Shown piece by piece: positions 2,721 to 29,297 of a stretch of DNA of 64,000 bases. The position numbers and the translations under genes were made by a program. The stretch's first letter is position 1. Each line of letters begins with the position of its first letter. The DNA comes from an uncultured Chloroflexia bacterium. GTDB taxonomy: Bacteria > Chloroflexota > Limnocylindria > Limnocylindrales > CSP1-4. Where the stretch lies: NCBI GenBank assembly GCA_963700555.1, contig CAVOXZ010000019.1, positions 210,408 to 274,407 of the forward strand. The letters are read 5' to 3'. Under the pieces are notes generated by a model. That model did not search any database. It was not told where the DNA came from and saw nothing but the letters and a program-made list of their open reading frames with translations.

Positions 2721-4393
2721 ATGACGAACGGCGTTTCCGCCGCCGCCCTCGACTCGCTGGCGGCCGACTTCTGGCAGGCCTACCTCGAGATGGATCCGCA
2801 GTACGCGACCATGCTCGGAGAGCCCGGGTTCGACGGCCGGCTTCCGGATCGCTCGGCCGGAGGCCTGGCGGCGGCGCGAGCCACCTACGCCCGGCTCCTC
2901 GCCAGGCTCGACGCCCTCCCGGCGGCCGGTGGCGGAGCGGCCGCGACCGGTGCGGCGATCACGCGATCCGCGCTCCGGGACGCGATCGAGGAGCAGCTCA
3001 CGCTGATCGACAGCGGGGTCGCTGGCCTGGAACGTGGACGCGCTCGACGGCATCCCGGTCCAGCTCCTCAACACCGCCGACTACCAGCCGACGAGCACGC
3101 CGGACGACCGCGCCGCCCTTCTCGAGCGGTGGCGGGCGATGGGCCGGTTCGTGGACGACCACATCGCAGAACCTGCGGCACAGCCTCGCCGATGGCGTCG
3201 TCGCGTGCAGCGCGCCCGTGGACCGGGTGATCGACATCCTGGCGGAGCAGCTGGCCAGACCGGACGCGGAGCTGCCGCTCATGGTCCCGGTGGCCGGCGT
3301 CGAGGAGGCGATCCGCGACGAGATCCGCCCGGCGTTCGCCCGCCTGCACGACGTGCTCGTGAACGAGATCCGGCCCGCCGCCCGTCCGGACGATCGCCCG
3401 GGCCTGTGCCATCTACCCAACGGCGACTCGGCGTACCGGCGGCTGGTGCAGATGCACACTTCGCTCGAGGTCGCGCCCGAGGAGTTCCACCGCATCGGCC
3501 TGGCTGAGATCGAGCGCATCGACGCCGAGATCGAGGCCCTGACCGGGCGGGTCCTCGGCAGCAGGGACCGACGGGCGGCTGCGGCCGCCCTGCGCAACGA
3601 CCCGGCGCTGCACTTCACGACCCGGGAAGAGGTCTTTGCCAAGGCCGCCGCCTCCCTCGATCGGGCCACGGAGGCGATCCCGGGCTGGTTCGGGCGGCTC
3701 CCGCAGGCGCGGTGCGAGGTCGTGCGCATGGGGGCGCACGAGGAGGAGCACTCGACGATCGCCTACTACCGGATGCCGGCGCAGGACGGCTCGAGGCCCG
3801 GCCAGTACTACATCAACACGTCCCACCCTGAGACCCGGCCCCGGTACGAGGCCGAGGCGCTCGCCTATCACGAGTCCATCCCGGGCCACCACCTCCAGCT
3901 CGCGATCGCCCAGGAGCTCGAGGGCCTGCCGGCGTTCCGTCGCCACCTGGCACCCAACGCGTTCGCCGAGGGCTGGGGCCTGTACGTCGAGCGGCTGGCC
4001 GACGAGATGGGGCTCTACTCCAGCGACGTCGATCGCATCGGGGTCCTCTCGTTCGACGCCTGGCGGGCGTCGCGGCTGGTGGTGGACACCGGGATGCATG
4101 CGCTGGGCTGGACCCGGAGCCAGGCGATCGAGTACATGGTCGACCACACCGCGCTTGCCGAGAACAACATCGTCAACGAGGTCGATCGCTACATCGTCCT
4201 GCCGGGCCAGGCCCTCTCCTACAAGGCCGGCCAGCTGGAGCTCCTCCGCCTCCGCGCCGAGGCCAGGAACCGGCTTGGTTCCGCGTTCGACATCCGGGCG
4301 TTCCACGACACGGTGCTGGGCAACGGCGCCGTCCCGCTGCCGACCCTGCGCGCGATCGTCGAGGCGTGGGTGGCGCTGCCCGCCGTACCCTAG
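2721..4393 (+). CDS. DUF885-family protein; frame broken twice as sequenced (near nt 3030 and 3165)
   Basis: Three consecutive frames (0->1->2) join into one protein: [30 protein letters not shown]... / [21 protein letters not shown]... / [11 protein letters not shown]...[17 protein letters not shown]...[14 protein letters not shown]. The YHExIPGHHxQ block is typical of DUF885 (COG4805). The length becomes divisible by 3 after removing 2 nt. Confidence 0.8.
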
Positions 4394-21476: not shown

Positions 21477-24410
21477 CTACTTGTGGATCGTGACCTGGCC
21501 CTGGACCGTTCCGGAGGCGATGTAGAGAGGGCTCTCGTGATCGGGGTCGGCGCCTGGGGACCAGACCTTGATCACGAACCGATCCTCCGCCGACTTGCCG
21601 TCACGGGCATCCACCCGGAACGGGTACTCGCCGGTCGAGCCCTTGATCATCGCCAGGCCGCGGAACTTGGCCCAGTTCTGGTTGGTGACCACGAGCCAGT
21701 CGAGGCCGGTGCTCGACAGGTCCAGGTCCCCGGTCTTGTAGTGGAACGTCAGGCTGCCGCCCGGGGTGGTTGAGGCACCGTTCCGGTACTTGATCGTGAA
21801 CCCGAAGTTGGCCTTCGAAGCGCCGTCCAGGCCGGGGAGGATGTCGCCCGGGTCGGACGACGCGCCACCCGGCACGATCCAGCCACCGCCGGTCGCGAAC
21901 GACCCGTTCGGGTCGTACACGACGACGTACAGGTAGCTCGTGGTGGCGGACTGGCCGCTGGGGTCGGCAACGCCAAGGGTCAGCGTGTACACGCCGGGTT
22001 CGGTGTACGCGTGGTTGCCCGTGATCGTGGCGCTGCCCGTCGCAGAAGCAGGGATCGCGCCCGTGGAGCTTGTGCCGTCACCCCAGTCCCAGCTGGCAAC
22101 GTGGCCGCCAAGCTCACCGGGATCGGTGAGGCCCGCGGTTGCCGAGGCCGTCGATCCGATCGGGGTGACCGATGATGGGATCTGGATCGGCGCCAGCTCC
22201 GGCGCCGCTACGCCCAGCGACCACAGGCTGGCCGCCGAGGTGAGGACCGTCAGCTGGATGTCGCCATCGGCCAGCGTCTCGCGGAGGTCGACGCACGGGT
22301 CAGGGTCTGCAACCCCCGGTGACCCGGTGCAGTCCGCGACCGGGACCGAGTTGCGGAACACCTGGATGGTCGCGGCCGTGTCACCGCTCGGAATGGCCGT
22401 GGAGTCCAGCCGGAATACGAACATCAGCGGGCTGGCGGCCGATGCCGCTGGTGCGGTGATATCGAAGGCCTGCCCGACGAGACCGTAGCCCGCGGCGGGA
22501 GGGTCTGTGGACAGGTTCGTGACGATCTGGACGAGCCCGCCGTCCGGGGCCATGACGGACGCCACGACGGGTTCACCCGCGTCAGGCCCATCGCCGCCGA
22601 CGTCACTGCTCAGGCTCCCGCCGGGATCAAGGACGGCCGGCCCGCCCGGCGGCGGGGTGGGTGTGGGCGACGGACTGGGGGTGGGTGTGGGCGACGGACC
22701 AGGGGTCGAGGTGGGCGATGGTGTCGGAGGCAGGCCAGCATTCACGGCGATGTCACCGGACAGGAGCCCGACAACCGGATGCTCCCGGGCGGCAAGGCAC
22801 GGGGCCGGCGCGATCGAGCTATACGCGTTGACCGCGATGGTGTCTCCGACACCGGCCGGGCCACCGTCATCCACGAAGATCGTCGCATACAGGGTCCCGG
22901 CGCCTGCGGATGACCCGTGACCGATGAGCATGGCCTGCGTGCCCCGGATATCCAGGCAGTCCACGGTCCCGCTCAGGCTGAACCCCTGCGACTCGGAGAT
23001 GGAGAACGTCCCGGAGACGTCGCCGCTCTCATTGAGCAGGGCATCGAAATCGAACGTCCGCGTGTACCCGCCCCCAAGGTCGCTCGTGCCACTGCCGACG
23101 GCGGTTCCCGGCTCCGGCGATCCGTCGAGGATCGTGACCTGACCGTAGTAGAGGGTCTGCTGGGGCGGGCCCGCGGACGAGCAGTCGGGCGGCGCCATGT
23201 TGGTGGGGCCATCGAGGGCTGCGGTGTCCAGGAACCCGTCAGGGCCGTTGTCGGTGAGATACAGCGTGAACCACAGGGGGCCACCGCCGGGTCCGGCATT
23301 GGGGCTCACCCCGCCCGCCACGACCTGGTTGCCGGTGACGGACAGGCAGATGACCGTCCCGCTCACCGCGGACCCATATCGGGTCATCTGGATCGTGCCG
23401 TCCAGCCCCCCGGCGCCGTCCGAGATGGCAGCAAGGTGGAAGCTGTCGGCTTGGGACGGACCCGTCTGCAGGGCGCCCGTTGCGACCACCGTCGCGGCGG
23501 GTGCGGGCGGTCCTCCGCTGCCGTTGACGTCGATGTCGCCGCCAGTGAGCGGGTCGCCGGGATTCTCCTGCGCGGCGAGGCAGCCGTTGGGGCTCGCCTG
23601 GTCGTAGGCGTTGAAGGAGATCAGGTCTCCCGAGCCGTTTGGCCCGAGGTCATCGACGAAGAAGGTCGCGTACAGGTAAGGGCCGCCGCCTCCGGTCGGA
23701 TTGGATCCCTGTCCGATCACGGTGGCGTGGCTGCCTCGGATATCCAGGCAGATGATCGTCCCAGACGTGGCGAAACCGCTCGACTCGGTGATCGAGTACG
23801 TTCCGGTCACGATGCCGCTCGCGTCCCGCTCCCCGTTGAAGTCGAATGTCCGGGTCGCGAACCCGCCGATGGAGCTCGTGCCCTGGCCGCTTACGGTGCC
23901 TGCGTCTGGGGCTCCGGTGAGGATGGTGACCTGACCGTAGTAGAGCGCCTGCTGGGACGGGCTCGGGGTGCTGCAATCCGGCGATGCCATGCTGGTCGGA
24001 CCGTCGACCGCCGCCGTATCCGTGGCGCCGTCCGGGCCGTTGTCGGTGAGAAACACCGTGAACCAGAGTGATCCGCCGCCGGGTCCGCCATTGGGGCTCT
24101 CCCCGCCCGCCACAACCTGGTTGCCGGTGATCGAAAGGCAGGTGACAGGGCCGCTCGCGATCGAGCCACCGGTGCCGACCTCCAGCCAGCCACTGACGCT
24201 GCCGGCGCCATCGTCGGAGACGGTGAGGTCGAAGGTGCTCGTGGATCCGAAGCCGGTCTGGATCGCGCCTGAGGCGACGACGCTGACGGGGGTCGCGGCG
24301 CGCGCCGCCGGCAGGATGACCGTCGTGGCGAGGAGGAGTGTCGACAGGGCGACAGTGAGGGCGACGGAATAGGGTGAGCGTCGGCCCGGAGACCAGCGTG
24401 GGACGCGCAT
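21477..24410 (-). CDS. large secreted multi-domain protein: signal peptide, 2 x ~260-aa duplicated module, Pro/Thr linker, PKD domain, C-terminal beta-sandwich domain
   Basis: GGAGG lies 4 nt before the ATG at 24410. The signal peptide is MRVPRWSPGRRSPYSVALTVALSTLLLATTVILPAARA|A. The duplicated modules are shown under the repeat feature. The linker is PPTPSPTSTPGPSPTPTPSPSPTPTPPP. PKD signature: WDWGDGTSSTG...GNHAYTEPGVYTLTLGVAD. The 2.9-kb frame is intact. Confidence 0.85.
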   Translation of the reverse strand: MRVPRWSPGRRSPYSVALTVALSTLLLATTVILPAARAATPVSVVASGAIQTGFGSTSTFDLTVSDDGAGSVSGWLEVGTGGSIASGPVTCLSITGNQVVAGGESPNGGPGGGSLWFTVFLTDNGPDGATDTAAVDGPTSMASPDCSTPSPSQQALYYGQVTILTGAPDAGTVSGQGTSSIGGFATRTFDFNGERDASGIVTGTYSITESSGFATSGTIICLDIRGSHATVIGQGSNPTGGGGPYLYATFFVDDLGPNGSGDLISFNAYDQASPNGCLAAQENPGDPLTGGDIDVNGSGGPPAPAATVVATGALQTGPSQADSFHLAAISDGAGGLDGTIQMTRYGSAVSGTVICLSVTGNQVVAGGVSPNAGPGGGPLWFTLYLTDNGPDGFLDTAALDGPTNMAPPDCSSAGPPQQTLYYGQVTILDGSPEPGTAVGSGTSDLGGGYTRTFDFDALLNESGDVSGTFSISESQGFSLSGTVDCLDIRGTQAMLIGHGSSAGAGTLYATIFVDDGGPAGVGDTIAVNAYSSIAPAPCLAAREHPVVGLLSGDIAVNAGLPPTPSPTSTPGPSPTPTPSPSPTPTPPPGGPAVLDPGGSLSSDVGGDGPDAGEPVVASVMAPDGGLVQIVTNLSTDPPAAGYGLVGQAFDITAPAASAASPLMFVFRLDSTAIPSGDTAATIQVFRNSVPVADCTGSPGVADPDPCVDLRETLADGDIQLTVLTSAASLWSLGVAAPELAPIQIPSSVTPIGSTASATAGLTDPGELGGHVASWDWGDGTSSTGAIPASATGSATITGNHAYTEPGVYTLTLGVADPSGQSATTSYLYVVVYDPNGSFATGGGWIVPGGASSDPGDILPGLDGASKANFGFTIKYRNGASTTPGGSLTFHYKTGDLDLSSTGLDWLVVTNQNWAKFRGLAMIKGSTGEYPFRVDARDGKSAEDRFVIKVWSPGADPDHESPLYIASGTVQGQVTIHK
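22719..24296 (-). repeat. intragenic tandem duplication (two ~0.8-kb units, 23496-24296 and 22719-23495) inside the secreted protein gene
   Basis: Unit 1 reads ATPVSVVASGAIQTG...CLSITGNQVVAGGESPNGGPGGGSLWFTVFLTDNGPDG...QALYYGQVTILTG...CLDIRGSHATVIGQGS...YATFFVDDLGPNG. Unit 2 reads ATVVATGALQTG...CLSVTGNQVVAGGVSPNAGPGGGPLWFTLYLTDNGPDG...QTLYYGQVTILDG...CLDIRGTQAMLIGHGS...YATIFVDDGGPAG. Confidence 0.85.
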
Positions 24411-24548
24411 GGAGACCTCCCGACGCGTCTGGGCAGGACGACCAAGGGCGACGCGCCGTGGCCGAACCCTAGCCCGCGTGGTGTCCGGATGCAACCCCTG
24501 GATGCAACGATTGGTGCGCGATGACACCATGGCGCTGCCGGCCACTGA

Positions 24549-25860
24549 TCAGGTGGCAGGCGGTCCAGCGGTCTGCCAGCCGAACCACGCCTCGGCCTCC
24601 ACGCGGGGCCGTGCGAGCCATGCCTCCCCACCGCGCAGCACCACCTCCGGCGGGAGGGGGTGCGAGAGGAAGAAAGGCATCGACTCGGTGGCCCCATAGG
24701 CACCGGCGTCCAGCACCCCGACGAGGTCGCCGACGTCGGGCGCGGCCATGTCTGCCGCGCGGGCGAACACGTCGAGGGCCGTGCACAGGGGCCCGGCGAG
24801 CATCACGGGCTCGGCGCCGGGTGGCAGCGCCCCGGTGACGGCGGCTGCCCGTCCCGTGAGGGCGACGACACGTTGATCGCGGCCCACCAGCACCGGCCGC
24901 AGCAGGTGATGGATGCCACCATCGACGATGACCACCGGCCGGCCGTCCATCAGCTTGCGGTCCACGACGCGGGTCACGTACGCCCCTGAGGCACCCACCA
25001 GGAACCGGCCGGGTTCCAGGATCACCCGCACGCCGCGGGTCGCGGGCGAGGCGGCCATCCGGCGCGCCAGCAAGGCAAGACGCGTCCCCAGCGCCACGAG
25101 ATCCAGCTCCGCGTCGCCGTCGGCGTAGGCGATCCCCAGGCCGCCGCCGGCGTCCACCAGCCGCAGCTCGAAGCCAGCCGATGCCGCCACTGCGATCGCC
25201 GTCTCGACCGTTGCTTCCACGTGGGTGGCCAGGGTGCCGGCATCGGTGACGTTGGACGCCCCGAACGCGTGCAGGCCCAGCGGCTCCAGCCACGGGGACG
25301 CGACGGCCTCGGCTGCCGCGGTCCGCAGCTCACGGTGGTCCATGCCGAACTTGCCGGTGATGTCCACGCCGGCTTCGCCACGGGGCCCGGTCGCGTCCAC
25401 GCCGGCCACGGCGGCCCGGAGCAGGACCGGCTGGCGACGGCCGAGGGCCTCCCCGATGGCCGCGAGGCGCCGCAGCTCGCCCGGCGACTCCACCGTCACG
25501 ACGTGCACGCCGGCCTCGACCGCTGCCCGGAGCTCCTCGTCGCGCTTGCCCGGACCGGTGAACACGACGCGGTCCCGCGCGAACCCTGCCCGAAGCACGT
25601 GCCGCAGCTCGCCACCCGAGGCGACGTCCGCGCCGAGGCCCAGGCCCGCGATGTGCGTCAGCACCGCGAGGTTCGGGTTGGCCTTGACCGCGTACGAGAG
25701 GTCGAAGGCGTCCGGCAGGGCGGCCCGCAGCGCCTGCGACCTGGCGCGTGACCAGGTCCAGGTCATACACGTAGAAGGGCGTCCCGAATCGCGCCGCGAG
25801 GTCTGCCGGCGCGAGCCCCCCAAGGCGACCCTCGTGCAGGATCCCGCGGCCGAGGCTCAT
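24549..25860 (-). CDS. lysA: diaminopimelate decarboxylase; frame broken once near nt 25745
   Basis: The N-terminal frame reads MSLGRGILHEGRLGGLAPADLAARFGTPFYVYDLDLV. It then continues RSQALRAALPDAFDLSYAVKANPN (PLP Lys), DAGGGLGI, ILEPGRF and GPLCTALD. The length is 3n+1. Confidence 0.9.
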
Positions 25861-26642
25861 CGGAGCGCATCCTCGAGCGCGATCCTCGCATCCGTCCCCT
25901 CGTCGCGATCCTTGACCAGCAGCGCCACCGTCATCGACAGCCCGTGCTCCGCCGCGAACCCGCCCGCGAGGACCCGGGACCCGGGCACGACCACGGCGCC
26001 TGACGGGATCGCGAGAGGCACGTCGGGTGTGCCGGTCAGGACGCGCCCACGGACGAGGTCGTACACGCGCGACGTCCCGGTGAGGACGACCCCGGCGCCG
26101 ATGACTGCACCGGCACCCACGAGCACGCCCTCGAGCAGCGAAGACCCGGCCCCCACGAAGGCGTCATCCTCGACGATGACCGGCCTGGCGCCGGCCGGCT
26201 CGAGCACACCGCCGATCGTCACCCCGGCGGACAGGTGGACCCGGGCACCGACCTGGGCGCAGGACCCGACGAGCACGTGCGAGTCGACCATGGTGCCCTC
26301 GCCGATCCACGCACCCACGTTCACGAACGAGGGCGGCATGATGACGACGCCGGGCGCGAGGTACACGCCAGCCCGCACGGAGGTGCCTCCCGGCACGATG
26401 CGCCAGGGACCCGCGAGCAGGTCCTTGGTCGGCATGCCGGCCCGATCACGGAACCGCAGCACGCCGCCGAGGTCCCATTCGACGGACGTACGGTCACGGA
26501 AGCAGGCAAGGATCGCGGTCTTGACCTCGGCGTCGACGCGCCACCCACCCGGGGAGCCGGGGTCCGGGACGGCGGCGCGCCGGACGCCGGCGTCGAGATC
26601 AGCGAGGATCGGGGCCACGGGGCCCACCGAGACAGCGATCAC
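25857..26642 (-). CDS. dapD: 2,3,4,5-tetrahydropyridine-2,6-dicarboxylate N-succinyltransferase
   Basis: Hexapeptide-repeat core: VRAGVYLAPGVVIMPPSFVNVGAWIGEGTMVDSHVLVGSCAQVGARVHLSAGVTIGGVLEP. The GTG start overlaps the dapA stop (GTGA), and the stop overlaps the lysA start. Confidence 0.85.
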   Translation of the reverse strand: MIAVSVGPVAPILADLDAGVRRAAVPDPGSPGGWRVDAEVKTAILACFRDRTSVEWDLGGVLRFRDRAGMPTKDLLAGPWRIVPGGTSVRAGVYLAPGVVIMPPSFVNVGAWIGEGTMVDSHVLVGSCAQVGARVHLSAGVTIGGVLEPAGARPVIVEDDAFVGAGSSLLEGVLVGAGAVIGAGVVLTGTSRVYDLVRGRVLTGTPDVPLAIPSGAVVVPGSRVLAGGFAAEHGLSMTVALLVKDRDEGTDARIALEDALR

Positions 26643-27619
26643 GCGGCGACCTCCTCGGTGGGCCACGCCTGTCGTCCGCCGCCGTCCACCAGCCCGAGCG
26701 CCCGGAGCAGGGCGACCAGGCGCTCCCTGGGCGCGTCGGACAGCGGGAGCAGCGGTGCGCGGGCAGCGTCGCCGTCGAGCAGGCCCATCGCCAGCAGCGC
26801 CGCCTTGGCGGGGACAGGGTTCGGGGCCCCCTGGAAGTTGGCCCGGAACAGGGGCAGGAACCGGTCGTGGATCCTGCGCGTGACCGCCAGGTCACCGGCG
26901 TGCCAGGCCCGGACCATGGCCGAGAGCTCGCCCGGGACCTGGTTGCTGGCGACCGAGATCACGCCGTCGCCGCCCATGGCGAGGATCGCCAGCGTGGCCG
27001 CGTCGTCGCCCGAGAGCACGGCCACGTCGCGAGGGCGGTCGCGGCAGATCACGGCGATCTGCTCGATGTTGGCGCTCGCCTCCTTGACGGCGATCACCCG
27101 CGGGTGCTCCGCGAGCCGCAGGAACGTGTCCGCCTCGACGTTGGCCCCCGTCCGACCGGGCACGTTGTAGACGACGATCGGGAGTCCGCCCTCATCGGCG
27201 ATCGCTCGGAAGTGGGCATCGAGCATCCGCTGGTCGGGCTTGTTGTAGTAGGGCGTGACGATGAGGGCGGCGTCCGCGCCGAGCGCTGCCGCGCGGCGTG
27301 TCGCCTCGATCGAGGCGCGGGTGTCGTTGGAGCCGGTGCCGGCGATCACCGGGACGAACCGGTCGCCCGAGCGCTCGCCGGCCGTCTGCACGGCGATCTC
27401 GATACAGCGGTCGCGCTCGGCGGCCGACAGTGTGGGCGACTCGCCGGTCGTGCCGACGGGGACCAGGCCGTCGATGCCGGCCATCACCTGCCAGGCGACC
27501 AGGCGGCGGTACGCCGCCTCGTCGAGGGCTCCGTCCGTGCTGAACGGTGTCACCAGGGCGGTGAAGGCGCCACGGAGCCGGGGCGCGCTGTCGGCAGCGG
27601 TTCGGGAAAGGCGGGTCAT
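26639..27619 (-). CDS. dapA: 4-hydroxy-tetrahydrodipicolinate synthase
   Basis: Intact 326 aa with GLVPVGTTGESPTLS, VVYNVPGRTG and VIAVKEASAN (Schiff-base Lys). Confidence 0.95.
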   Translation of the reverse strand: MTRLSRTAADSAPRLRGAFTALVTPFSTDGALDEAAYRRLVAWQVMAGIDGLVPVGTTGESPTLSAAERDRCIEIAVQTAGERSGDRFVPVIAGTGSNDTRASIEATRRAAALGADAALIVTPYYNKPDQRMLDAHFRAIADEGGLPIVVYNVPGRTGANVEADTFLRLAEHPRVIAVKEASANIEQIAVICRDRPRDVAVLSGDDAATLAILAMGGDGVISVASNQVPGELSAMVRAWHAGDLAVTRRIHDRFLPLFRANFQGAPNPVPAKAALLAMGLLDGDAARAPLLPLSDAPRERLVALLRALGLVDGGGRQAWPTEEVAA

Positions 27620-27655
27620 CTCGGAAACTCCTTGAGGTAGGTAGGGACTGGATCG

Positions 27656-28427
27656 TCAGAGCGGCCAGGCCGTGGCCATGGCGGTGGCACGGAGCGGGGG
27701 TGCGGCGAGCAGGTCGTCCACCACCGCGTCGAACGGGTGGAGCCCCGGGCCCCGGTCCTCGCGGGCGAGCCAGCGCGCGGCCGCGAGCGCCCCGTCCGCA
27801 TAGGCCTGGCGGTCCCGGGCCGTGAGGCGCAGCTCGACGTTCTCGCCCGGGCCGTCGAAGGTCACGAGGTGGGTCCCCGGAGCCGAGCCGGCCCGTACCC
27901 CGACCACCTCGAGGGCGGGGCGTGGATCGTCGGGAGCGTCCGGACTGGCCCAGCGCGGGTCCACGGCCGTGATCCGGCGCGCCATGGTCCGTGCCGTTCC
28001 CGACGGGCGGTCCGCCTTGCCGCGGCGGTGCCACTCCACCACGGACGGTTCGAAGCCGGCGCGGGCGTACATCGCGGCCGCCTGCTCCACCAGGCGCAGG
28101 AACAGCGCGGCGCCCAGGGCGAGGTTGGGGGCGACCACGGCGGCGGCTCCGTGCTCCAGGAGCATGGCCCGTACTGCGGGCGACATCCCCATCCCAGCCG
28201 CTGGCGGCGAGGACGAAGCGCCTGTTGCCGGCGTCGAGCGCACTGGCCAGGTTGCCGGCGACCTCGGGGCCGACCGATGCCTCGACCACGACATCCGCCC
28301 GGGTCGCGGCCGCCCGGGTCCCATCGGAGCCCGGGCGGCCCACGAGCGTCGGCGTCCAGCCGGCATCCGCGGCGGCACGTGCGATCGCCCCACCCAGGCG
28401 ACCGGGCCCGTAGATCAGGAGCTGCAT
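27656..28427 (-). CDS. dapB: 4-hydroxy-tetrahydrodipicolinate reductase; frame broken once near nt 28187
   Basis: The N-terminal frame reads MQLLIYGPGRLGGAIARAA...FVLAASGWDGD. It continues AVVAPNLALGAALF and VEWHRRGKADRPSGTA (the E-x-H-x-x-K-x-D-x-PSGTA motif). The length is 3n+1. Confidence 0.9.
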
Positions 28428-28477
28428 GGTGATGACATCCTTTCCGCGGATGGGAGCCGCGGTTCCGGAGGTCCGAG

Positions 28478-28517
28478 AATCACAAAGGCCGCGATCACCG
28501 TCGTGGTGCTCGCGGCC
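28478..28517 (-). terminator. intrinsic-terminator-shaped hairpin in the dapB 5' leader
   Basis: The minus strand reads GGCCGCGA-G-CACC-ACGAC-GGTG-A-TCGCGGCC followed by TTTGTGATT. It lies ~50 nt upstream of the dapB ATG and 52 nt downstream of the leader-ORF stop. Confidence 0.5.
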
Positions 28518-28568
28518 CCTTCGGCGCCTCCGGTCCCGGAGGCTCCGTTCGTCGTCGCTCGCGCGCCG

Positions 28569-28652
28569 TCAGAGCCCCTGGGCCCGAGCCTTCCAGCTGG
28601 GCCGCCAAGGCTTCTTCTTGGTGTCGAAGCTGACGATGATGAGGTGCGACAT
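28569..28652 (-). promoter_or_regulatory. candidate leader peptide ORF (27 codons) with three consecutive Lys codons, upstream of dapB-dapA-dapD-lysA
   Basis: The ATG at 28652 opens MSHLIIVSFDTKKKPWRPSWKARAQGL, ending with TGA at 28571-28569. AAG-AAG-AAG lies at 28619-28611. The ATG sits 9 nt after a -10-like CATACT, the geometry of a leaderless mRNA. Confidence 0.45.
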
Positions 28653-28661
28653 GGCGAGCGC

Positions 28662-28690
28662 AGTATGCCGTCCGGCGCAGCCATATGCAA
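28662..28690 (-). promoter_or_regulatory. candidate sigma-70-type promoter of the dap operon leader (-35 TTGCAT, 17-nt spacer, -10 CATACT)
   Basis: On the minus strand TTGCAT lies at 28690-28685 and CATACT at 28667-28662. They sit in the only AT-rich patch between dapB and ogt. Confidence 0.4.
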
Positions 28691-28706
28691 CTATTGCATC
28701 GTGAAT

Positions 28707-29297
28707 ATGTTCTATGCATTCAGCGCTGTGCTCCGCGTGCCCTCGGAGCGGGGTCCGGTGCATCTCGCGGCGACCCAGCGGGGCGTTGCGGCCGTGGAGC
28801 TCCTGGGGTCGACGGACTCGTTCGAGGCCGGGCTCGCCCGGCGGGGGCTCGTCGTGGATCCGGAGCGGGCGGGGCCGGATGCCGCTCGCCTGGCTGCCGA
28901 GGGCGCCGACGGCGTGCTCGCGGTGCTGGCCGGCGATCCGGTCGACCTGGCCGGGCTGCCCATCGACATCGACGATCGCCCGGACTGGGACCGGCTCGTG
29001 CTGGGCGCCGTCCGCGGGATCCGGCGCGGGGCGACCGCGAGCTACGGCGAGATCGCGCGACGGATCGGGCGGCCGGGGGCGGCCCGGGCCGTGGGCGGTG
29101 CCGTTGGCCGGAACCCGGTCGGCCTCCTGGTCCCCTGCCACCGGGTGATCGCCGGCGACGGGACCCTGGGCGGCTACGGCGTCGCCTCGTGGGGTGGACG
29201 CGAGGCCGCCCTCGAGCTCAAGCGGGAGCTCCTGGCGCTGGAGGGGGTTCGGCTGCGCCCGGCGCCGGGTGTCAGGGATCCGACACCCGGGCTGTGA
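28707..29297 (+). CDS. ogt: methylated-DNA--protein-cysteine methyltransferase
   Basis: The C-terminal domain reads SYGEIARRIGRPGAARAVGGAVGRNPVGLLVPCHRVI and contains the PCHRV active site. ATG is at 28707, with an alternative GTG at 28701. Confidence 0.9.
   Translation: MFYAFSAVLRVPSERGPVHLAATQRGVAAVELLGSTDSFEAGLARRGLVVDPERAGPDAARLAAEGADGVLAVLAGDPVDLAGLPIDIDDRPDWDRLVLGAVRGIRRGATASYGEIARRIGRPGAARAVGGAVGRNPVGLLVPCHRVIAGDGTLGGYGVASWGGREAALELKRELLALEGVRLRPAPGVRDPTPGL

Follow-up and report, generated by a model that had tools for sequence, protein, structure and literature searches.

Transcription attenuators of the trpL type, which precede amino-acid operons (trp, with E. coli trpL as the type, and also his, leu, thr, phe and ilv), consist of a short translated open reading frame (ORF) with tandem codons for the amino acid that the operon produces; the stop codon adjoins segment 2 of the leader RNA, and the folds 1:2, 2:3 and 3:4 exclude one another. 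Fold 3:4, a GC-rich hairpin followed by a U tract, has the highest thermodynamic stability, and the antiterminator has to win by kinetics. The genes for lysine and diaminopimelate (DAP) are the textbook domain of the L-box riboswitch. The window analyzed here is a 64,000-nucleotide stretch (71.7% G+C) of contig CAVOXZ010000019.1 from an uncultured Chloroflexia bacterium; ahead of its dapB-dapA-dapD-lysA operon lies a leader which, in its sequence and predicted folds, resembles the trpL-type attenuators in each of these traits, and the E. coli trp attenuator has the same energy ordering of folds as the one predicted at this locus. The dapB leader is probably a ribosome-mediated transcription attenuator that senses the supply of lysyl-tRNA.

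A Lys-codon attenuator had been put forward for this spacer by a sequence-only reading; that interpretation is supported, and every computational check which had been named beforehand as able to refute it came out in its favor. The minus strand of the window was read from 28900 to 28300 for leader features, and those that carry the argument are the following.

28685..28690, minus strand: -35 box TTGCAT, by direct reading
28662..28667, minus strand: -10 box CATACT, 9 nt ahead of the ATG of the leader ORF, by direct reading
28569..28652, minus strand: leader ORF MSHLIIVSFDTKKKPWRPSWKARAQGL, 27 codons plus TGA, by direct reading and comparison
28611..28619, minus strand: control codons AAG AAG AAG (Lys1-3; codons 12-14)
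28573..28612, minus strand: hairpin H1 (segments 1:2), inside the ORF, -23.7 kcal/mol, from RNAalifold
28526..28543, minus strand: hairpin H2, GCCUCCG-GGAC-CGGAGGC, -12.8 kcal/mol, z -3.1
28478..28517, minus strand: predicted intrinsic terminator T, a 13-pair GC-rich hairpin at 28517-28487 with the tail UUUGUGAUU at 28486-28478, -25.1 kcal/mol, z -4.4
28571..28605, minus strand: 5' strand of the predicted antiterminator, from the H1 5' arm through the loop and 3' arm to the first base of the stop codon, pairing with 28546-28512
28512..28546, minus strand: 3' strand of the predicted antiterminator, comprising the two arms of H2, the linker, and the G that precedes the terminator 5' arm together with the first 6 nt of that arm

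The elements of the sequence-only reading were all found where it had placed them. The promoter hexamers TTGCAT (28690-28685) and CATACT (28667-28662) are separated by a 17-nt spacer; the ATG at 28652, nine nt past CATACT, opens the 27-codon frame, which closes with TGA at 28571-28569; the three AAG codons occupy 28619-28611, and the 7-bp hairpin GCCTCCG/CGGAGGC occupies 28543-28526. The terminator-shaped hairpin GGCCGCGAGCACC..GGTGATCGCGGCC and the TTTGTGATT that follows it (28486-28478) lie ~50 nt ahead of the dapB ATG at 28427, and GCGGCCC (28605-28599) is complementary to GGGCCGC (28518-28512).

With the repaired DapB sequence as query, a one-genome-per-species collection yielded 54 loci, nearly all of them in metagenome-assembled genomes (MAGs) of Ca. 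Limnocylindria/Limnocylindrales, Chloroflexota. The Lys-rich micro-ORF and the hairpins are kept upstream of dapB in 52 of these 54 loci and in at least 120 metagenome stretches, which were found by scanning metagenome contigs with a degenerate 37-nt core pattern (0 chance matches in 100 shuffles); the leader is missing from two loci, one on a truncated contig and one in an Actinomadura genome whose DapB identity is 32%. The leader is kept even where DapB is only 50-55% identical to that of the window. About 150 distinct leader versions from related uncultured Chloroflexota are available in this way; leader statistics refer to 152-153 unique leaders, and the structure alignment A1 to 49 genome-derived leaders. 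Among ~170 loci, the metagenome part being the matches listed, dapB is the next gene wherever the downstream DNA suffices and no other regulated gene was found behind the leader; eight unclear metagenome cases were inspected by eye, and the DapB N-terminus opens each. The core pattern search found no second copy of the leader in the window, and with dapB always downstream the element is therefore considered dapB-specific. Three contigs labeled beta proteobacterium, Saccharimonadales and Gaiellaceae (L028, L039 and L053) carry the leader and DapB as in Limnocylindria MAGs and are probably mis-binned.

The promoter-like signals and the reading frame are conserved together with the leader. In 149 of 152 unique leaders a -10-like hexamer is preceded, at a distance of 16-19 nt, by TTGCA[TC]. 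In 145 of 153 a hexamer of the form.A...T (CATACT, CAGACT, CACACT, TATGGT, AACAAT and others) precedes the start codon by 6-10 nt; 79 leaders have a spacing of 6-7 nt and 57 have one of 9 nt. No Shine-Dalgarno sequence was found ahead of the ORF start in the leader set examined; since the start also follows the -10 box so closely, the natural reading is that the leader mRNA would be leaderless or would carry a 5' untranslated region of 1-3 nt. The frame was assessed with the promoter located by motif alone and with the first ATG or GTG 4-11 nt past the -10 box accepted in any frame; 144 of 148 leaders have this first start in the frame of the Lys run, where chance would give one third. The N-terminal part of the ORF varies in sequence, and in length by whole codons (start-to-Lys distances of 27, 30, 33 or 36 nt), and the ORF is 25-28 codons long in 144 of 145 leaders. 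This comparative pattern indicates that the leader ORF is translated; the peptide has no Pfam or NCBIfam family match. The sole genome-derived leader with an out-of-frame ORF (L049, leader at ~3775-3860) contains one extra T in its N-terminal codons (ATGTCGCACCTGCTACGTC), which is probably an error because the record is a long-read MAG.

The control codons encode KKK in 124 of the 153 unique leaders, the other triplets being KQK (11), KRK (8), RKK (4), AKK (2) and, one each, KAK, KHK, KKL and EKK; AAG accounts for 427 of the 459 triplet codons. Lysine makes up 0.85% of the residues of five window proteins, and at a level below 1% lysyl-tRNA is a plausible sensitive signal; AAGAAGAAG is found once in the 64 kb when both strands are considered. 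Lys1 and Lys2 lie outside every predicted helix yet are 95% and 86% conserved, respectively, and their conservation is therefore not due to RNA pairing. The leader ORF contains a run of codons for the amino acid that is the end product of the operon. In the two codons immediately before this run (28620-28625, minus strand, and their counterparts in the homologues), residue -2 relative to Lys1 is D or E in 143 of 153 leaders, through the codons GAG, GAC, GAT and GAA, and residue -1 is A or S, likewise in 143 of 153 and through four codons; as both are kept through synonymous changes and outside RNA pairing, selection on the amino acid is suggested.

RNAalifold applied to A1 gives three hairpins, H1, H2 and T, which together are 97.8% paired with 22 compensatory cells; 0 of 500 shuffles equaled that value. 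H1 features an outer helix AGCCUU:GGGGCU, which starts at the last two bases of Lys3, an inner helix GGCCCAGCU:GGCU-GGGCC and the loop GGAA, and its 3' strand stops just short of the stop codon; 97.4% of its cells are paired and four pairs show compensatory changes, with pair 69:76 changing from C-G to U-A in 11 of 49 sequences (15 of 149 in the larger set). H2 is paired in 98.8% of cells over the 49 homologues, and is modeled to keep segment 3 closed on itself when segment 2 is unavailable. Across 145 homologues T has a mean energy of -22.7 kcal/mol and 5.7 T in its 10-nt tail, compared with 13% T leader-wide; the tail sequences differ among homologues and are always T-rich, and six sequences of the 49-leader alignment show a compensatory change from G-C to A-U at pair 171:189. 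These properties point to an intrinsic terminator between the leader ORF and dapB. The only call made by a simple consensus scan (28599-28613, plus strand) is antisense to the leader ORF and corresponds to part of H1 read in reverse complement; it was set aside.

An alternative fold was found by masking the footprint of a ribosome with Lys1 in its A site on transcripts that end before the terminator 3' arm. Folding of the window leader and its homologues bears out the expectation of a stable alternative pairing, with the proposed GCGGCCC:GGGCCGC as its base helix; the predicted antiterminator is much larger than first proposed, having 27 pairs which take in both upstream hairpins, with GGGGCUCU:GGAGCCUC as the core helix. 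With the ribosome at Lys1 it is the minimum-energy fold in ~35 of the 49 homologues. Its energy in the window is -55.7 kcal/mol, compared with -36.5 kcal/mol for H1+H2 and -61.6 kcal/mol for H1+H2+T; the antiterminator therefore beats H1+H2 until the terminator 3' arm has been made, after which H1+H2+T gains a slight advantage. Of the antiterminator cells, 95.8% are compatible, versus 32-50% when the partner strand is slid, and over 149 sequences the base helix is 99-100% pairable and the core 91-100%. The 37 columns that are paired in both folds have a mean identity of 0.983 and none is variable; mean identity is 0.89 for columns paired in the terminator state only, 0.92 for those paired in the antiterminator only and 0.82 for those paired in neither. 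The two pairs with the commonest compensatory changes, 69:76 and 171:189, are unpaired in the antiterminator. Together, the folds predict an antiterminator which excludes the terminator. A long-range helix GGAGCC:GGCUCC, present in the full-length minimum-energy fold of the window leader, was rejected, as by eye its complementarity is not kept in relatives.

The full-leader equilibrium fold is the terminator throughout and is therefore non-discriminating as a test; transcripts of growing length were folded instead, and ensemble probabilities under a ribosome mask were averaged over the 49 homologues in an equilibrium model. When the H2 5' arm has just emerged, the probability of the antiterminator core is 0.22 with no ribosome, 0.91 with the ribosome at Lys1, 0.89 at Lys2, 0.54 at Lys3 and 0.00 at the stop codon. 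Once H2 is complete, the probability of H2 for the same five states is 0.87, 0.32, 0.49, 0.31 and 0.82; once the terminator 5' arm is out, the probability that this arm is held by GCGGCCC is 0.10, 0.85, 0.44, 0.00 and 0.22. In this model the antiterminator is favored by a ribosome at Lys1 or Lys2, and the terminator by one at the stop codon. A codon-by-codon scan has its maximum at Lys1, to which a 3-nt shorter footprint adds Lys2, and gives zero from Lys3 to codon +10.

The mechanism that we propose would begin at the TTGCAT/CATACT promoter, with the transcript starting at the ATG or 1-3 nt before it and ribosomes loading without a Shine-Dalgarno sequence. Segment 1 would comprise the Lys codons and the H1 5' strand, segment 2 the H1 3' strand as far as the stop codon, segment 3 H2 with the terminator 5' arm, folding back as H2 when segment 2 is occupied, and segment 4 the terminator 3' arm. 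H1 would fold directly 3' of the Lys codons, overlapping the last AAG, with its 3' strand GGGGCUCU extending into the stop codon; H2 and then the strong, U-tailed terminator would follow, ~50 nt ahead of dapB. When lysine is plentiful, the ribosome would reach the UGA and cover the H1 3' strand; H2 would then close on itself, T would form and transcription would halt. When lysyl-tRNA is scarce, the ribosome would wait with Lys1 or Lys2 in its A site, covering the outer H1 5' strand and not GCGGCCC; the freed GGGGCUCU would pair with the emerging H2 5' arm GGAGCCUC, and the duplex would zip outward through H1 and H2, ending in GCGGCCC:GGGCCGC and thus holding the terminator 5' arm. With this arm held, RNA polymerase would read into dapB-dapA-dapD-lysA. 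The analysis shows the conservation, the reading frame, the complementarity, the energies and how the predicted fold depends on where the ribosome stands; the start of transcription, the stalling of the ribosome and termination are the steps of this scheme which are inferred.

Several observations weigh against this reading and temper the strength with which it is held. A consensus scan called neither the promoter nor the terminator; the promoter was missed because the -35 box of this leader agrees with TTGACA in only 3 of 6 positions, and the terminator, for which the miss counts against the proposal, because the T count of its tail is too low for the rule. The U tract of the window is interrupted (UUUGUGAUU), and the transcription start is inferred solely from promoter-like hexamers. 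No compensatory double changes were found in the antiterminator pairs, because their columns are almost invariant; the case for the predicted antiterminator is one of conservation pattern and energy, not of covariation. At equilibrium the full transcript forms the terminator for any ribosome position (P ~0.98), and the switch must therefore be kinetic, as in trp; its kinetic steps are putative. With no ribosome present, thermodynamics favor the antiterminator as long as the terminator 3' arm has yet to be made, and the antiterminator is likewise favored when the 5' part of the ORF is absent as well; in the equilibrium masking model, stalls ahead of the Lys run are also permissive to some degree (0.45-0.7). 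The triplet contains only two Lys in 29 of 153 leaders, and the synonymous variation before the Lys run hints at a peptide-level constraint that is superfluous to the model. A similar-looking leader ahead of Streptomyces ilvB was unaffected when its candidate control codons were mutated (PMC1262725), and appearance alone is therefore no proof.

Three further features of the leader bear on the choice between explanations.

28552..28568, minus strand: near-invariant box CGGCGCGCGAGCGACGA, directly after the stop codon of the leader ORF
28465..28471, minus strand: conserved CCUCCGG box, just past the terminator tail
28444..28462, minus strand: small hairpin CCGCGG..CCGCGG, abutting the dapB Shine-Dalgarno sequence GGAAAGGA at 28445-28438

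The CCUCCGG box resembles an anti-Shine-Dalgarno sequence and is complementary to the H2 3' arm CCGGAGG, with which it pairs in the full-length minimum-energy fold; it may couple the leader fold to dapB translation. The arms of the small hairpin co-vary (CCGUGG/CCACGG in L001), as judged by eye with no formal count. These last two features are what an output exerted mainly at translation would call on, in which lysine is still sensed by stalling and acts, via the stalled ribosome or the refolded leader, through access to the dapB ribosome-binding site (RBS), the terminator-shaped hairpin and U tract being secondary or stabilizing; the Shine-Dalgarno sequence is partly paired in the full-length minimum-energy fold, a covarying hairpin abuts it, and leaderless poly-Cys short ORFs of mycobacteria provide a precedent for RBS sequestration (bioRxiv 10.1101/834739). 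We consider such an output unlikely, as the GC-rich hairpin and T-rich tail are kept in 145 homologues despite differing tails, the alternative fold specifically captures the terminator 5' arm, and pairing between the CCUCC box and the Shine-Dalgarno sequence is not evident in the window, where the latter is GGAAAGGA. An arrest peptide would leave the RNA switch unchanged and replace its trigger: the nascent chain (..[DE]-[AS]-K-K-K-[PL]-W-R-P..) would stall the ribosome in the manner of TnaC or SpeFL, either in response to lysine, DAP or some other small molecule or by virtue of its basic sequence. Selection on amino acids is suggested by the acidic and small residues that precede the Lys run and are kept through four codons each; they would suit this explanation, as would a strongly basic peptide whose C-terminal half is almost invariant. 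However, the residues change freely (S/C/G, K/E/T, A/T) where the RNA covaries, and the C-terminal conservation is therefore explained by the RNA; in addition, the model has the antiterminator base blocked by a ribosome halted at any codon from Lys3 to +10, searches with the peptide gave no known family, and the sensing of Lys codons is the simpler reading for a Lys operon. An arrest peptide is accordingly thought to be very unlikely.

Selection of the fold without translation, by a riboswitch-like or protein-bound RNA in which the ORF is incidental, would account for the very high nucleotide conservation across lineages with DapB only 50-55% identical and for several near-invariant unpaired stretches, such as CGGCGCGCGAGCGACGA, that are otherwise unexplained. 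The lineage uses riboswitches, though not for dapB: SAM and c-di-GMP-II-GAG riboswitches flank the dapB leader in relatives (L077 3141-3247, L045 1-103 and L085 13519-13606, all plus strand), and their detection by the same scan indicates that it works on this lineage. That scan found no L-box (RF00168), which the sequence-only reading had named as a competitor; it gave no Rfam match at gathering score in the window, nothing relevant at E<=10 in 28200-29000, and no L-box, T-box or other Rfam family over the leader in 12 related loci. The Rfam model for a T-box leader likewise found nothing in the window, in 28200-29000 at E<=10 or in the 12 related loci. With an incidental ORF one would not expect 144 of 148 starts to share the frame of the Lys run, or insertions and deletions to come in threes; the Lys codons are conserved outside any helix, and the fold is a chain of simple hairpins without a conserved multi-helix junction. 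Selection of the fold without translation is thus regarded as highly improbable. The box CGGCGCGCGAGCGACGA lies outside the main helices of both folds, contributing no more than a small apical hairpin to the antiterminator; its possible roles are those of a pause site, a footprint of the terminating ribosome or a partner of the N-terminal codons. Candidate pairings with the N-terminal codons and with GCGCCG, which lies between H2 and T, were considered and not adopted, as the partners vary without compensation. With these boxes and the residues that precede the Lys run, some scope is left for a translational layer or a nascent-peptide contribution. It is unlikely that the attenuator has a second input, a contact of the nascent peptide or the RNA that senses free lysine, DAP or the state of the ribosome and so combines tRNA charging with metabolite sensing to control both termination and dapB translation; the acidic-small-KKK-[PL]-W-R-P peptide, the post-stop box CGGCGCGCGAGCGACGA and the CCUCCGG box could be pointers to it.

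The genes downstream were identified as the sequence-only reading had them, dapB, dapA, dapD and a lysA-type decarboxylase, by matches to family profiles.

24549..28427, minus strand: regulated operon dapB-dapA-dapD-lysA-type decarboxylase
28427-27656, minus strand: dapB, best match TIGR00036 with a score below the curated cut-off
27619-26639, minus strand: dapA, score above the curated cut-off
26666-25857, minus strand: dapD, score above the curated cut-off
25823-24549, minus strand: lysA-type pyridoxal phosphate-dependent decarboxylase

Compared with L001, L002 and L003, the window dapB has one additional nucleotide near 28175 (CGC-A-GTACGG), and its ORF is thereby split between two frames. 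The gene is unbroken in relatives, many of which are long-read MAGs, and the frame break is more likely a sequencing error than the mark of a pseudogene. Directly 3' of lysA there is an ORF of 1022 aa (21477-24545, minus strand) that is repeat-rich and rich in Gly, Thr, Ser and Pro, with internal duplications. The upstream neighbor is a divergent ogt-type methyltransferase gene on the plus strand with its start at 28707; the 280-nt spacer therefore carries two back-to-back promoters. Within it, an AT-rich patch at 28683-28720 contains three ATGCA-type repeats (ATGCATAG, ATGCAATAG and TTGCATATG) and covers the leader -35 box and the first codons of the divergent ogt; the patch may be an operator common to both promoters.

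If the proposed mechanism holds, a whole Chloroflexota class, uncultured and common in soil and freshwater, would sense lysine by means of the ribosome. The leader has a clear and unusually well-conserved layout, with an apparently leaderless ORF, three control codons, two decoy hairpins, the predicted 27-pair antiterminator and the terminator, which suits the study of kinetic RNA switching and of transcription-translation coupling, neither of which is known to have been examined in this phylum; it would also provide a compact candidate part for lysine-responsive regulation, and a marker for annotating dapB operons in these genomes.

Of the systems to which the dapB leader can be compared, the L-box also acts from the 5' leader on genes for the biosynthesis and transport of lysine, in many cases by a choice between terminator and antiterminator; it differs in binding lysine directly through a five-helix aptamer of ~180 nt and in needing no ORF, and the dapB leader does not match it. 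The lysine cluster of the alpha-aminoadipate pathway in Thermus thermophilus reportedly has a short leader ORF with tandem Lys codons and lysine-responsive attenuation, which would be a precedent for Lys-codon attenuation; that system belongs to another phylum and has another leader length, and its pathway is not the DAP pathway served by the leader in the window. In mycobacteria, leaderless poly-Cys short ORFs act as cysteine attenuators at the level of translation (bioRxiv 10.1101/834739). As in the dapB leader, the host is a high-GC bacterium and a biosynthetic operon opens with the short ORF, which has consecutive cognate codons; stalling there remodels the downstream RNA, as is proposed for the dapB leader. 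However, the mycobacterial system responds to Cys and unmasks an RBS with no intrinsic terminator, whereas the dapB leader has Lys codons and a conserved terminator-shaped hairpin with a T-rich tail, and so does not follow the mycobacterial pattern in its output; it may have a translational layer in addition.

Literature searches found no description of a dapB leader peptide and no report of this type of control for the pathway or the phylum. In a comparative study of Actinobacteria no RNA element was reported for lysine operons (PMC1262725), and a short ORF with Thr and Lys codons has been suggested as a leader in Sinorhizobium (PMC10117765). As of 2010, leader peptides were viewed as confined to Proteobacteria, Actinobacteria and, newly, Firmicutes (PMC2965389). 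The trpL-type attenuators have no sequence relationship to the dapB leader, which differs from them in its amino acid, lysine, in the operon dapB-dapA-dapD-lysA, in an apparently leaderless ORF and in its Chloroflexota host; segment 3 of the dapB leader also has a hairpin of its own, H2, and the predicted antiterminator is a 27-pair refolding of two hairpins together with the terminator arm. The mechanism itself is known; what appears to be new, as judged from comparative sequence analysis, is the combination of amino acid and pathway, the phylum, the apparently leaderless ORF and the unusually large predicted antiterminator.

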